NCBI RefSeq assembly: GCF_058153355.1
Contig: NZ_CM177019.1
Length of the DNA: 64,000 nt
Direction: 5' to 3' (one strand)
Position numbers: made by a program. This document shows positions 6,901 through 12,900 of this stretch, in pieces (positions within the stretch are counted from its first letter, which is position 1; each line of letters starts with the position of its first letter).

Positions 6901-9900
6901 GGCCTTCCTTTGATATCTCTCTCAAGCCCAAACCCGTATTTTTTTATTAAAACCATTTCATCTGCAGTCGATTGAAAGGAATAGAAAAATATAATATTTA
7001 CTATTGTCATTATTATGATTTTTTTTATAGCTTGCAGCATTAATATATTTCTCGACTTATTAGTTAATGGAGAAGTGCTTTTTCTAATTCCGCTATTTTT
7101 TTCTTAACTAAATTGCTTAATATTTCATCATTAATCGAGTCTATCTCACTTTCAATTAATCTTATTTCAAAATATCTTTCTATGTTATATGCATTCTCAA
7201 ATATTTGATCTTTTTGTTTAGAGATCAGTTTAGTTGCAATACGGATATGTTCGTCATATGAAACTTCATCCTCTTTGCACGTTGAATATTTATCAGTAGT
7301 TGTATAATCCTGTGACCACATACCACCTTTTTTATTATCCCTATAATACCACTGAATATGAGACATTTCATGACATAAAGTAGCAACATGAGAATCCTTT
7401 CCCGTTACTGGATTTTTTTTGCCATCTCTATACTCAAATTTTGCGCCTATGTTAATTATATAGGGCATATCCTTACTTGGGCTGACGAATGCTGCAAATT
7501 CATTACAACCTGTATAATTTATAAAACTGCTCATTGTTAAATCATTAGCTATAATCATTAATCTTCTCACACCATCCATCATAAGAAATCTAGCATTCAT
7601 GCGCCTGCCTGTATTATGTCCATATTTTCTTATATTAACTTCCTTATTTCCTTTAACACCAAAGATCTTACTGAAATCATATTCCTCCTGTGCTCCCCAT
7701 CTCAAAAGATCATCTGCTCTTTTTATCAAAACCAACTTTTGTGCCTTACGAGCCTTATCAATCATTATTTTAAAATGATCAGTTATTTTTTGCTCTTTCA
7801 CACATTCTTCTGGCTCTGGCTTTGGTTGTCCAGAAGTTTGATTATTATCGTCCATAGTGTCCTTCCATTGAGAGAAAATCATCATTCGCAAATAGCAACT
7901 TCACTTTAATTTCATGTTTGCTAGATACAAAAAAACGCTCTGTATACCCCTCTTCATCCGTTTCTCCGCGGGTCTGCGTGCCATCCTCAAAGAAGGCAAT
8001 GTAGCGGGTTTCTGAATACGGTATCCCGTCATCGTCTGTAAAATGGAACTGGAGAGTATATTTTTCAGGTTCATCCTCATCGTCACCTCGATCATCACCA
8101 CCACTTCCGGTCACGCAGTTCCCTCCAGAGTTTTCATTTTCTTCTCCGGAATCACTGCCATCACCACTCTTCTCATCCCCCAGTGTCTTCAGCACCGCCG
8201 GTTGCAGCGCCGGCACCGGCGCTCCCGGACTACCGCCGCTATTGAGATTGATTTTCGGCCCGACGATGTCCACGCCCCCTGAATGGATGACCACAAACGA
8301 GCCCCCCACCTTCAGGCTTATCCGGCTGCTGCTCTCCAGCACGATATCCCCGTCCACCTTTATCCCCAGCGCGCCACTCACCTTCTCCGCCAGGTCGCCC
8401 TTCACCTCCAGACTGTGCTTCCCCTCCACCAGACTGATATGGTTCCCCGTCGTCTTATGCTCCTGCTTCCCTTCCACCGTCACTTTACGGTCGTTTCTGA
8501 CATACAGGCCGTCATCGTGACTCACGCTCACCGTCCGGTCATTCGTCACCTTCAGCGTCTGGTCATTACGTACCGTTATGCGCCGGTCGTTCGCCACCGT
8601 GATACTCTGGTCGTGACCCCCTTCTTTTCTGGTGCCGACCTCAACCGTCTGCCCCTTCACCACCCTTATCTTCTGGTCGTTACCGATGGTCTCCGTATGG
8701 TCATGCTTCACGTCCGTCGTCCGGTCGTTAAGCACCTCCGTGTCCATGTTCTTCTGCGCGTGGATATACACCTGCTCACTGTCCGTCGCATCCTCGAAAC
8801 GCAGTTCATTAAAGCCGCTTCCTTTATAGGTCTTCGAGCGGATGGTCATCTGCGTCCGCGTGCCCGGTAAATCCCCCGGTGAACGGTTATCTTCATGGTA
8901 GGTCCGCCCCGTCACAATGGGCTGGTCCGGGTCGCCGTTCAGAAAGTCCACTATCACTTCCTGACCCACACGCGGTATCGCCAGATTGCCGAACCCCGGT
9001 CCCGCCCATGCCTGCGACACCCGTATCCAGCACGAACTCTCCTCCGTCATCCCGTGATAACGGTCCCAGTGAAACTTCACCCGTACCCGGCCATGCTCGT
9101 CGCAGAATATCTCCTCACCCTTCGGCCCGGTCACGATGGCACTCTGCGGGCCGTCCACCTTCGGCTTCGGCAGCGGCGCGTGACGCCACGTCCTGTCTGC
9201 CGGTATCACCTCAAACTGATTGCTCAGTGTCGTCCCTTCACCGTGACTCCCGTGCAGCGCCTGCGGCTGTTCTCCCCGCAGTGTGCTTCCCACAACCTGC
9301 CATTCCCGGTTCAGCGTCTCTGAGGGATGGCCCGTCAGCCGGAACCGCGTTCCCGGCCACAGCCGCGCCGTGTTACACACCCCGCTCGCCGTCTCCGCCC
9401 CGTTCCGCCACCCTTCCGTCTGGTAACGCGCAAAATCCTGGCCATGCTGCTCATCCTTGAAACGCCCCGGATAATCAAATATCTCGTACTGCGTTCCCTG
9501 CCCGTTCAGGCTCTCCCCGTCATGGCTGTAGTACCCCGGCCACCCCGGCGTTTTGAACGTATAATCCTGCGTCTCCACCGACGCCACGCTTATCTGCGCA
9601 CGGTAACGAAACTCACTGATGTACTCCGTCGTTCCCCCGGTCGTGGTATTCGGGTTAAACGCCAGCGCCCCCATTCCCGTCAGCCCCGCCACGTCATCAC
9701 ACACCGCCAGCTTCTGCTCCGGCCCTTCCTGACCGCAGCGCTCATAAAAGAAGATACCTTCCTCCGCCCACAGCCGGGTCAGGAATGCCAGGTCGCTCTC
9801 CCCGTACTGCACGCAGAACTCCCGCGCCGGGTGCGCCTCATAGAACAGCGGCATCCACGCCGTCACCCCGTTCTCTCTCAGAAGCTGTGCTGATATCGTC

Positions 9901-12900
9901 TGAATGTCCTGCTGCTGGAAGATACGGAAGTTCTGCCGTAACCCTGCCCGCCACAGCGGCGGGCTGATGCTCAGGGAATAACGCATCTGCCAGTCGTTGT
10001 TCTCACCGAGCTGCACCTCCGTCACGATACCGCTGACGTAACGCTGCGGGATATCACCCTGCCAGACCGTCAGCACCGCGCTCTTCTCCAGAAAATCCTC
10101 CGCCGTCAGGTCGGGCAGCCCGCTGGCGATATCCACATCCAGGATGAACGGCGTGCAGTGGTGCTGGTACAGACGGAAGCTCACCACCGCCGTCGCCATC
10201 TCCACGATACCGGCCACCGACAGCGTGAAACGTAATCCTTCTGCTGCCATATAAACCCCATAGCTACCGCACTCATAGTGCAAACCATACGGGCTTATAA
10301 GAAAGGCTTAAGTGAGATATCTGCCAGATAGCAACTATTAGGAAAATATTTATATACATTTCATGAATACATTCATTAATACCGAGATGTTTTTGTCTAT
10401 ATAAACAGAGCAAGCTAACGTCCTCACTCCATGAAAGAAACTACGTAGGGGCCTTTCGGTCCATAACAACTTTTTCCCTGTTATATCCTGACGTTCTGGT
10501 CTACTGGTGTAGTCATGCATATTGCAACGTTCTACCCATGGAAAGATAAATAAAGCCAGCTCTCCGCAAGGACTGAAGCGAGGTGCTTTCTGTCCATAGC
10601 TGCTTTTCGCAACTTACTCCTTAAGCCAACACTGAATTCCTTATGATTTGTCACAGTATGAACTTTTAATTTCATACATTGCTCTTTAGTCAATGGAAGA
10701 AAAATAAGCACCCTCTACCAAACGACACAAATAACCTGCAAATGGGAAATGACTTATTACTTAGAAATTTGCAGAGATATAAACCACGAGATATATCCAC
10801 CTTTTGAGTTAACAGTTACAGACGTTATAACATTATCTTTTATCCAGATATCAACAAAAAAGTCCTTACCACAATAAAGACATTCACAATATCCTTCAGA
10901 GATAAAGTTGTCCTTAAGTTTATTTCTGGTTATATTAATAAGTTTATCGCCAGGATTGTAATGTACTAAATTTCCAGATGGCACAAACATCTCAATTTCA
11001 CACTGTCCTGACGTTCCACATCGAGGGCAAACGCACCATGCTTTCAATAAATCATAATTCGACATTATATTACCTTAATTTATTTCACATCAGCATCCCC
11101 CCTTGCAAACCACAACTAAACTATTCCCATAAAATACAACGAGATAATTTTACTGTTAAACGTACATTCACAAAACTCAGGGGAAGAAAAATGACCATCA
11201 GTCAAAAATAAAGATAGTTTGCTTAGTGCGTAATCAATTGAATCAAGCGACAAGTATAATTTTATTACTAGTGAGTCCTGTATCAGGACATCATCTTCAT
11301 TGGGGGATTGTAAAAGTAATAAATTTTTATACGCTACAGGTGATCTGTTTTCCAGTCTAATAGGTTTGCTTGCTTCCGTCTCCAATAAACTATAAAGAGC
11401 ACAAACCATCTCATGAGCATCATCTTTATCAAAATATAAATGAAAACCGCCCAGAGATTTGTTAGCAATCATAATACGTTTCTAAAGTTGATTTAAAATT
11501 TTGCATTTCATGCCCATCAAAAAATAAATATTTTTTAACTACAAAGCAAACCTCACAGCGCATAGCGGTTAATATTCTACCTTAACGACTTTCATTCCTC
11601 TTTCAATCATACCATTAATTAATTGATAATACTCTTTATCCCCTATATCTACTATTAGAACATGGCCCGTAAGTTCATTGATGAATAAATACTCAGGTTC
11701 CTCATCTGTACCAGCATTTGAAATAACCCAACCAGGATCAGTACCGTCTATAAAAAACTCCCACTCTTTAAAATTAACACTCATTTAATCCTCCTTTTTA
11801 TACTCGCAAGAAAAGGAGAGTATCGTTTCTAACTCCGAAATAAAAGTATGATAAAAGACAGGACCTGACCTCATTTAATGTTATTTATCAATTCTTGATA
11901 GTTTTTGCAGATGCAGCGTAAACGCCTTATCTGGCCTACACAATCTTGCAAAATCAATATATTGCACGATCTGTCGGGTAGCAGCGATTCATTACTGTCT
12001 CGCCGCCCCCTAAGAACGGTACGTGCGAGTTTCCCCGCATACCGCTCAAGCCTTTATAAGCCTCCACCTTGTGGGAGACCAGCGTCATTACTATGTAGTT
12101 GTCGATGGCAGTTGGGATGGAGTAGGACTAAATTGCTCACATCATCGCTACCGCCAAGAGATTTCTTGAGCAAATGATGAACATTCCATCCTGTATCGCG
12201 ATTAATCGGTTGCTCACATAAAGGGCAGCGCGATCCTTGCCTTTTCCATATAGCGAGAATCCTTTTCTGCCCCTGTTGGGATTTCTTCCATGAGTAGTCC
12301 AGCCTTCTTTCGAAGTATGTTTCCCACTCGGGATCATATGGATTTGCCGTTCCCTTTATTTTTATATAGCGATTAATATGGATGTCGCTGGCCCGGGACA
12401 GAACATATTTCCTACCCTCCGGATCGACTCCATAAAATCGACCATGACACATTTTTATTGTCGTGTGGTACTTTCGGAAGATCCATCTCCGGCCTTTGCC
12501 GGGATGTCTCCTTCTGCACCACTGCCAGATTTTGCGCCAGATTTGGTTGTCGACATAGTTAAATGTCTCTGCCGATGCTACATGTTGGTGATAGTTTGCC
12601 CACCCGGTGATGATTGGATTAAGCAGATTTATTAGCACCCATGCAGGAACCGTTCGGTTACCTTCAATAGTCTCTCTGATCTTGCTAAGAAATTGTTTAA
12701 CGTTTTTCTTGGCTGGTCTGATTATGAGTTTTCTACCGAAGCGTCGGACGTGCTGCCCAAGGAAATCAAATCCGTCAGTAATGTGAGTGATGACCGTTTT
12801 CTCTTCGGATAACGTCAGCCCTCTTTCTGCAAGAAATGATTTCACCAACGGAAGAACATTCTCCTCCAGAAGTTCTTTCGACTTTCCGGAAATGATGAAA

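Follow-up and report, generated by a model that had tools for sequence, protein, structure and literature searches.

E. coli K-12 carries rhsD between ybbP and selU/mnmH, as the earlier note stated and comparison with K-12 bore out, and the question raised by the stretch analysed here (the window: 64,000 nucleotides of contig NZ_CM177019.1, RefSeq assembly GCF_058153355.1) is what occupies that position. It is not an Rhs core: the longest open reading frame from mnmH to vgrG encodes 323 aa and none of the scanned frames matched an Rhs family, which agrees with the note's failure to see YD repeats. ISAs1/H-repeat remnants are present, a trait also of Rhs elements. What lies between ybbP and mnmH is an island with a minus-strand cassette, in the order vgrG, a gene for a HEMSH-containing protein and a gene for a protein with a signal peptide, and beside it a group II intron has inserted. 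The flanks and the cassette are:

up to 918: mnmH, whose end was placed by comparison with annotated strains
6219..7040, minus strand: gene for a putative immunity protein of 273 aa, with a Sec-type signal peptide and a beta-sandwich core (residues ~70-190)
7064..7855, minus strand: effector gene, a predicted 263-aa zinc metallopeptidase of M35/aspzincin fold, with neither signal peptide nor pro-domain
7358..7372, minus strand: HEMSH zinc-binding/catalytic motif, residues 162-166 (C161-H162-E163-x-x-H166 invariant in 19 homologues)
7845..10250, minus strand: vgrG (tssI), 801 aa, intact (TIGR03361, E=8e-177; Pfam Phage_GPD, Phage_base_V and Gp5_trimer_C twice)
7848..8087, minus strand: C-terminal ~80-aa domain of VgrG, after a Gly/Asp/Glu-rich linker, a candidate cargo-docking tail
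14379..16793: ybbP, placed by comparison with annotated strains

Very probably, this region is an auxiliary "vgrG island" of a type VI secretion system (T6SS) at the E. coli rhsD position, composed of vgrG, an M35 cargo toxin and a Sec-exported periplasmic immunity protein, with a mobile unit and a decayed second copy. VgrG would serve as a spike that fits the T6SS linked to aspV. The effector gene would be translationally coupled to vgrG, and its product would be a cargo toxin, carried on the C-terminal tail of the VgrG encoded next to it and injected into Gram-negative neighbours, where it would act by proteolysis in the periplasm, with zinc held by H162, H166 and probably D183, and E163 as the general base. 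The product of 6219..7040 would be exported by Sec to the periplasm and shield sister cells, and recombination would carry the low-GC unit (effector and immunity gene with the 3' end of vgrG) from one vgrG gene or locus to another, the downstream effector pseudogene and intact orphan immunity gene being a putative decayed second copy.

The start of vgrG was taken as the ATG at 10250, the mechanical ORF reaching a TTG at 10283, and its product shares 89% identity with the first VgrG encoded in the T6SS cluster that strain MFDS1022581 has at aspV. Pfam gave no match in the window VgrG past residue ~665, and to DUF2345 only an insignificant one (i-E 0.59). The longer effector ORF (7064..7891, 275 aa) begins with TTG; the likelier start, with which RefSeq agrees, is the ATG at 7855 (263 aa), which has GGAAGGA just before it and overlaps the vgrG stop codon region by 11 nt (ATGGACGATAA). 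The effector has no hydrophobic N-terminal stretch, and its catalytic domain begins at about residue 26. The immunity ORF begins 23 nt past the effector stop, and its product has a hydrophobic N-terminus (mean Kyte-Doolittle 2.88 over 12 residues) ending ...STA/DE. The layout that the earlier note described, a full-length vgrG, an overlapping HEMSH ORF and then a signal-peptide gene, is thus confirmed. Its interpretation fared unevenly: the VgrG-linked, periplasm-acting cargo effector/immunity pair stood, and the suggestion that the HExxH protein belongs to an undescribed family did not.

RefSeq names the effector an M35 family metalloendopeptidase, and the profile and structure searches that had been proposed led to a known fold. 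With an AF2 model (pLDDT 88.5), the top Foldseek matches were 1ge6 and 1g12, and in this model the catalytic domain has the M35/aspzincin fold. A profile of the effector family found AsaP1 (E=2e-6) and GfMEP (1.3e-3). The single effector sequence matched PF14521 (Aspzincin_M35) with an i-E of 0.0049, below the usual threshold, and precomputed PF14521 matches are present on some family members; neither NCBIfam nor PADLOC matched the effector, either immunity protein of the window or the small neighbouring ORFs. HEMSH lines up with HExxH in canonical M35 toxins fused to PAAR, Rhs or VgrG, and the elements invariant across 19 homologues, HExxH, D183 and NAYNIERYF, align with HExxH, GTxD and NADNFEYY of these relatives. 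D183, on this alignment probably the third zinc ligand, lies in GGMxxxD opposite the Asp of GTxD; the YG part of GTxDxxYG is lost and an insertion of ~20 residues follows.

The Lys-N type acidic S1' pocket (GfMEP Asp154 and Glu157, in NADNHEYF) is altered in the effector, whose motif is NAYNIERYF. We take GfMEP D154 to be the S1' Asp; in the E. coli effector family the aligned residue is an invariant Tyr223, and Glu226 is kept. This invariant Tyr, where Lys-specific M35 enzymes have the S1' Asp, is a new observation from the alignments, and because of it Lys specificity is doubtful for the effector. P1' specificity in GfMEP is set by position 157 (PMC11985622). The swap of Asp for Tyr in the specificity pocket offers a concrete handle on the substrate of T6SS M35 toxins.

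That the effector is not the founder of a new family follows from the literature, in which the zinc-protease toxin of this cassette already appears, together with its killing of E. coli from within the periplasm. The "M35-peptidase" of strain BCE049 (FQU84_13640), module 5 of T6SS effector locus 1 (Front Vet Sci 2021, PMC7904677), is identical to the window effector at 260/263 residues, and is reported there to be toxic to E. coli when it carries a PelB leader but not when left in the cytoplasm. The periplasmic action expected by the earlier note is thereby supported by a 99%-identical protein, for which the comparison of compartments is already published (PMC7904677). Like the window, BCE049 has the order vgrG, effector, immunity gene and ISAs1 remnant and the same C-terminal half of VgrG; unlike the window, its locus is at yncG/yddH, has a PAAR gene upstream and a diverged N-terminal part of VgrG, and its immunity gene is split into two ORFs, whereas that of the window is whole.

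A more distant relative is M35-PAR (AKO63_2955-2956) of E. coli PAR (Commun Biol 2023, PMC10673891), which is toxic from pET22b, in the periplasm, is neutralised by its downstream gene and binds VgrG via DUF2345, which mediates loading. Immunity and VgrG-loading tests are thus already in print, neutralisation and VgrG binding being reported only for this 30% paralogue (PMC10673891); the published toxicity assays are over-expression assays. M35-PAR was matched through the published primers to protein cluster P0023, which is 30% identical to the window effector (E=3e-33); the immunity reverse primer had no exact match in homologue locus L005, where the encoded C-terminus, ...LYSSMQ, is the same, and the E. 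coli PAR locus was not found in its genome at 2.86-2.91 and 3.00-3.05 Mb. All invariant effector motifs, the immunity family and the position directly downstream of vgrG are shared with M35-PAR, but M35-PAR lies inside a ClpV...TssM core cluster, after a VgrG with T6SS_Vgr and DUF2345, whereas the window VgrG ends in a different ~80-aa tail, and M35-PAR lacks the C-terminal helical extension of the window effector (residues 232-263). This extension was considered as a docking element for VgrGs without DUF2345, with which it correlates in nine sampled loci; its docking role stays a hint, because the orphan module in the window lacks the extension and yet has the same VgrG type.

Canonical fused Aspzincin_M35 toxins (P0100, P0066, P0090, P0118) have the same toxin domain, including its N-terminal helix (profile search, E 1e-18 to 1e-7), and downstream of at least one such fusion comes an immunity protein that has a signal peptide and the same beta-sandwich core. 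They are joined covalently to a carrier (VgrG, PAAR or Rhs), whereas the window effector is separate cargo, and they carry GTxDxxYG and NADNFEYY in place of the GGMxxxD, ~20-residue insertion and NAYNIERYF, with Tyr for the S1' Asp, of the E. coli family. The solved proteases GfMEP (peptidyl-Lys metalloendopeptidase, 1g12), AsaP1 (2x3a) and deuterolysin (1eb6) share HExxH with the effector, which also keeps the Glu equivalent to GfMEP E157. The P. aeruginosa VgrG2b C-terminal metallopeptidase with PA0261 (Wood et al. 2019, PMC6899460) is a comparable case, a T6SS-delivered, periplasm-toxic HExxH zinc metallopeptidase that a periplasmic immunity protein neutralises (PA0261 being disulfide-dependent), but it belongs to a different protease clan, with HExxH plus Glu983 and a resemblance to thermolysin-like enzymes and ACE2, and its immunity proteins, the PA0261/DUF7480 lipoproteins, form another family. 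Membership of the effector in the VgrG2b family was accordingly rejected, as the distal Glu, thermolysin-like fold and PA0261/DUF7480 partner are all missing, and this comparison does not support the "M35" label given to VgrG2b in PMC10673891. Salmonella arizonae SARI_02625/02624, with a 276-aa immunity protein, was also rejected as a homologue, its effector being unrelated and of endolysin type.

The arrangement of the cassette recurs. In 9/9 homologue loci (L003-L011) vgrG is directly upstream with the effector start abutting or overlapping, and in 9/9 an ORF of 206-308 aa with no Pfam match is downstream of the effector; because all nine have this layout, it is not due to chance. Several of the nine sit within TssBC/Hcp or ClpV/TssM/TssA clusters, and distant relatives occur as the toxin domains of VgrG, PAAR or Rhs fusions. 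Roughly 9% of the complete genomes of E. coli (~508) have the cassette, at 99-100% identity in the best-matching records. Strain MFDS1022581 is identical over 6000-8000 of the window and has the same island with all three cassette genes intact; its T6SS, at aspV, is complete (tssA-M, hcp, vgrG, PAAR), and its core-cluster VgrG carries another M35 paralogue. The conserved synteny, including that inside T6SS core clusters, and the complete T6SS of this closest genome uphold the earlier proposal of a cargo effector/immunity pair.

The cassette also bears signs of mobility. It is found at yncG/yddH in strains 042 and BCE049, and the identity of the window VgrG to that of BCE049 is mosaic: ~97% from about residue 360, with a clearly more divergent N-terminal part and 82% overall, the BCE049 VgrG with the ~97%-identical C-terminal part carrying the same effector. 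GC content is 61% in the 5' part of vgrG, falls to 42% in the stretch encoding the C-terminal domain (7848..8087), and is 32% in the effector and 28% in the immunity gene. Downstream is an orphan module, new here, consisting of a pseudogenised effector and an intact immunity gene:

3583..4554, minus strand: second (orphan) immunity gene, intact, 323 aa, 23% identical to the product of 6219..7040 over nearly its full length (E=3e-21) and included in the immunity-family alignments
4496..5295, minus strand: second M35-family effector gene, a pseudogene by comparison with the intact 266-aa gene of strain N96 (WP_001063571.1)
5288..5632, minus strand: orphan vgrG 3' fragment of the last ~114 codons, whose product differs in its extreme C-terminal tail; its translation has ...EKYTLQFHFTDDDGIPYSETRYIAFFEDGTQ... 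in common with the full vgrG (direct repeat D2)
5710..6171, minus strand: ISAs1 (H-repeat) transposase remnant between the two modules (NF033564, E=2.3e-27; "incomplete" in RefSeq)

Relative to the N96 gene, the second effector gene carries a nonsense mutation (TAC>TAA) and has lost 1 nt from an A-run. In direct repeat D2, 147 nt of the vgrG 3' end (7939-8085) recur in the orphan fragment at 87% identity, and the tail of that fragment matches the tail of the MFDS1022581 core-cluster VgrG. Upstream of vgrG, at 10535-10662, is a second ISAs1 remnant, whose 128 nt are 80% identical to the remnant at 5710..6171.

Such decay invites the reading that the cassette is an undeployed remnant, a silent vgrG island kept only for immunity genes that protect against attack by other strains. 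ISAs1 remnants flank it on both sides, an intron has inserted next to it, the second effector gene is a pseudogene while its immunity gene survives, and no PAAR gene lies upstream of the window vgrG, unlike at the 042 and BCE049 loci. Elsewhere, the near-identical strain N96 has a frameshift in vgrG, and the immunity gene is split in BCE049, in which deletion of the whole effector locus 1 left mouse virulence unchanged (PMC7904677). We nonetheless regard this reading as unlikely, if worth keeping in mind, as the window vgrG, effector and immunity gene are full-length open frames with a coupled start, the same three genes are intact alongside the complete T6SS of MFDS1022581, and the near-uniform identity of the cassette extends over the best-matching records among its many carriers.

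The nearest solved relatives of the effector are secreted toxic or virulence proteases, such as fish-toxic AsaP1 and fungal M35 virulence factors, and BCE049 owes part of its virulence in mice to its T6SSs (PMC7904677), so the protease might be aimed mainly at eukaryotic cells, or across kingdoms, with the downstream gene serving only self-protection or folding. This is improbable, since BCE049 was not attenuated by deletion of effector locus 1 and a near-identical protein is toxic in the E. coli periplasm (PMC7904677), and since a signal-peptide immunity gene, the hallmark of antibacterial effectors, invariably follows the effector. More improbable still is a non-protease of M35-like fold that, much as the zincophore Pra1 of Candida, binds zinc or scavenges metal and is toxic only as an artefact of over-expression: HExxH keeps its catalytic Glu without exception, conservation extends to a periplasmic immunity protein dedicated to the toxin, and the reported toxicity is compartment-specific (PMC7904677).

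With the T6SS toxin cassette thus preferred and its effector family already known, the fresh point concerns the antidote, which looks like a detached inhibitory pro-domain of the M35 family. Solved M35 enzymes are Sec-secreted zymogens whose cis N-terminal pro-peptide inhibits the enzyme and aids its folding (PMC11985622). The effector, unlike these zymogens, has neither pro-peptide nor signal peptide, and a pro-peptide-like fold is found in the product of the separate immunity gene, where the beta-sandwich core is folded like the AsaP1 pro-peptide that acts as inhibitor. From this fold, blocking of the effector active-site cleft in trans, in the manner of a pro-peptide, is the mode of action that we favour with modest confidence. 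The link is at the level of fold only, because the immunity-family profile found neither AsaP1 nor any other meaningful match among PDB sequences; Pfam matches of the immunity protein, and of each of the 14 sequences in its alignment, were confined to insignificant ones with DUF4352 and DUF6157. The family is kept beside divergent and canonical M35 toxins alike (hhalign 95%, E=3.6e-8, against the ORF that follows a VgrG-M35 fusion).

An evenly balanced proposition is that the immunity proteins of T6SS M35 toxins are descendants or structural mimics of the zymogen pro-peptide, split off and given their own signal peptide to act as periplasmic antidotes in trans, the toxin being a catalytic domain shorn of its pro-domain, whose remodelled S1' pocket, with Tyr223 in place of Asp, would give it a new cleavage specificity, other than for Lys, against an envelope target. 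Our literature search found no paper proposing a pro-peptide origin of M35 immunity proteins, and nothing relevant on aspzincins with T6SS or on links between immunity proteins and pro-peptides. The rhsD position adds one more locus for a T6SS toxin cassette and otherwise mostly confirms published work; a detached pro-domain, if true, would be a clear example of a toxin/antidote pair arising from a single zymogen, and would predict how immunity specificity is encoded.

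The arrangement read in the earlier note between mnmH and ybbP, a vgrG followed by an ORF with an HExxH motif and then by one with a signal peptide, was borne out in every detail, and the cassette is a real T6SS VgrG/effector/immunity unit, intact and well formed. Comparison with annotated strains placed the flanks of its island at the end of mnmH (918) and at ybbP (14379..16793). Its three genes are:

7845..10250, minus strand: vgrG, 801 aa, matching TIGR03361 (E = 8e-177) and Pfam Phage_GPD, Phage_base_V and Gp5_trimer_C
7064..7855, minus strand: effector, 263 aa, with HEMSH at residues 162-166
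6219..7040, minus strand: immunity gene, 273 aa, beginning 23 nt past the effector

The HExxH ORF was present as described, with its start moved from an upstream TTG at 7891 (275 aa) to 7855, which is preceded by GGAAGGA and overlaps the vgrG stop codon by 11 nt (ATGGACGATAA). The immunity protein has a typical Sec signal peptide (KK, a hydrophobic core, STA/DE), unlike the effector, which has none. As had also been anticipated, rhsD occupies this position in K-12, and no Rhs core was found in the island among the window ORFs or by family scan. The vgrG-effector-immunity module is flanked by two 3' remnants of an ISAs1 (H-repeat) transposase (5698-5825 and 10535-10662, 80% alike). Rhs elements, one of which K-12 has at the same locus, typically have such remnants as well.

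The effector sequence taken singly gave a sub-threshold Pfam match to Aspzincin_M35 (i-E 0.0049) and no match in NCBIfam, which is why the earlier note did not recognise the protein. A word-indexed search of ~5.8 billion proteins returned only 29 relatives, all from Enterobacterales, and in an alignment of 19 of them C-H-E-x-x-H, Asp183 in GGMxxxD and a C-terminal NAYNIERYF were invariant. The resulting profile matched solved M35 proteases, namely the zymogen AsaP1 (E = 2e-6) and peptidyl-Lys metalloendopeptidase (E = 1.3e-3), and searching 1.84 billion representatives exhaustively by profile brought the number of relatives to 256. In the more distant ones the toxin domain forms the C-terminus of a fusion to a VgrG, PAAR or Rhs tip, and the aspzincin motifs are canonical (HExxH, GTxDxxYG and NADNFEYY); when aligned to them, D183 of the window effector falls on the zinc-binding Asp, and NAYNIERYF on NADNFEYY. 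RefSeq names the product "M35 family metalloendopeptidase" or "peptidase M35", and the effector fold is M35. Compared with the peptidyl-Lys enzymes, the window family retains the motif Glu (E226), whereas the motif Asp (D154 in those enzymes), which also lines the pocket, is replaced by an invariant Tyr (Y223). The P1' specificity of those enzymes is set by their motif Glu, E157 (PMC11985622). Judged from these motifs, Lys specificity should not be assumed for the effector.

Residues 232-263 of the effector (window 7064-7162) form a confidently modelled C-terminal helical extension. It is present only in the subfamily that follows VgrGs without DUF2345 (the window, Salmonella, Buttiauxella and others) and absent from effectors after DUF2345-type VgrGs (nine sampled loci), with the window's orphan effector as the exception, and is only a hint of a role in VgrG docking.

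For the immunity protein, no sequence match was found in Pfam, NCBIfam or the PDB. Its family has four invariant residues (Cys121, Cys141, Trp152 and Trp194). The core of this family is matched by a 173-aa ORF with a signal peptide, located after a canonical VgrG-M35 fusion (hhalign 95%, E = 3.6e-8). The AlphaFold model has a mean pLDDT of 70; in its beta-sandwich core (residues ~70-190) most values are 82-94, falling to ~70 around residues 131-150. The effector profile matches residues 255-337 of AsaP1, whose catalytic domain is C-terminal. That domain is mostly helical and has about 172 residues, which would leave about 121 of the 293 resolved residues for the pro-peptide. The modelled immunity core matches AsaP1 over 123 all-beta residues, and because the catalytic domain is C-terminal and helical, this match probably falls on the pro-peptide. 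M35 enzymes are made as zymogens, with a pro-peptide that inhibits them and is needed for their folding (PMC11985622). Given this inhibition and the modelled fold match, the simplest reading would make the immunity protein a pro-domain-like inhibitor acting in trans in the periplasm; no statement of an M35 immunity protein in these terms was found in the searchable literature.

The order of vgrG, effector and signal-peptide ORF was the same at all nine homologue loci examined, several of them inside core clusters, beside TssB/TssC/Hcp or ClpV/TssM/TssA. Of 5426 complete E. coli genomes, about 508 have the cassette. MFDS1022581, which shows no difference over window 6000-8000, has this island too, and its vgrG, effector and immunity genes are intact. 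The aspV T6SS of this strain is complete (tssB, C, E, F, G, J, K, L, H, A and M, with tagH, hcp, vgrG and PAAR). The window VgrG is 89% identical to the first VgrG encoded there, almost without differences over the first ~530 residues. This cluster VgrG ends in the C-terminal tail also seen in the orphan vgrG fragment of the window (L018, the aspV cluster, 41250-45141). Behind it come a 307-aa M35-family paralogue (hhalign 99.9%) and a 190-aa ORF, and with this third paralogue MFDS1022581 therefore has three M35-type modules.

The orphan module lies downstream of the cassette:

5710..6171, minus strand: ISAs1 remnant between the cassette and the orphan module
5288..5632, minus strand: vgrG 3' fragment, downstream of the ISAs1 remnant
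4496..5295, minus strand: second M35 effector, a pseudogene in the window
3583..4554, minus strand: second immunity gene, intact and 23% identical to the first (E = 3e-21)

Relative to strain N96, the second effector has a TAC>TAA nonsense codon and has lost 1 nt in an A-run, and the loss of this effector beside its intact cognate immunity gene is the pattern expected if immunity were kept for defence. Within the C-terminal domain, the tails of the full vgrG and the orphan fragment have the first ~45 residues in common and differ in the last ~25, which would be consistent with recognition of cargo by specific tails and with exchange of cassettes through recombination in the conserved 3' part of vgrG. 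GC content is 32% in the effector and 28% in the immunity gene, against 61% in the 5' part of vgrG, and the window and BCE049 VgrGs are 82% identical overall and ~97% from about residue 360, the N-terminal part being clearly more divergent.

Upstream of vgrG there is no PAAR gene, unlike in the same cassette of strains 042 and BCE049. Two small ORFs without a family match stand there, and a group II intron (11973-14279, minus strand) lies between the vgrG island and ybbP:

10757..11065, minus strand: low-GC ORF, 102 aa, Cys-rich with CxxC...CxxC
11116..11472, minus strand: low-GC ORF, 118 aa
11973-12049, minus strand: intron D5/D6 (Rfam)
12054..13796, minus strand: intron-encoded reverse transcriptase/maturase with an HNH motif, 580 aa
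14132-14279, minus strand: intron domains D1-D4 (Rfam)

In N96, MFDS1022581 and MFDS1019527, the three complete genomes closest to the window, the match ends at window 11976, the edge of the intron, and in N96 and MFDS1022581 the intervening distance is too short to contain it. Elsewhere, ORF 2811..3272 (minus strand) contains a perfect hexanucleotide microsatellite (3013-3171; GCAGTA x 26.5, 100% matches), which is translated as a long run of Thr and Ala behind a hydrophobic N-terminus. The matching part of the near-identical strain N96 gave no tandem repeat, and the array therefore varies between strains.

The suggestion that the HExxH protein belonged to an undescribed family did not survive, since it is M35 by profile and by RefSeq and a near-identical protein (260 of 263 residues) has been published from BCE049. 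That paper (Front Vet Sci 2021, PMC7904677) describes this "M35-peptidase" as "module 5" of an orphan vgrG locus and reports that growth of E. coli was inhibited only by the form with a PelB leader, and the proposed comparison of periplasmic and cytoplasmic toxicity had thus already been published. In the BCE049 genome this locus, PAAR-vgrG-M35, lies at yncG/yddH. The immunity gene of this test strain is annotated as two short ORFs (16062-16833 of that locus, L016), and is apparently disrupted. A second precedent is M35-PAR (AKO63_2955) of E. coli PAR, which was toxic from pET22b, is neutralised by AKO63_2956 and binds VgrG via DUF2345 (Commun Biol 2023, PMC10673891). Its published primers match exactly the gene start of protein cluster P0023, whose protein is 30% identical to the window effector (E = 3e-33) with all invariant motifs in common, and its immunity gene and 6219..7040 are of the same family. 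"Peptidase" modules in vgrG islands had been catalogued earlier by Ma et al. 2018, as cited in PMC6730261. The cassette, though correctly read as a T6SS cassette, is already known, and what goes beyond the accessible literature is only the apparently pro-domain-like fold of the immunity protein and the Asp-to-Tyr change in the pocket.
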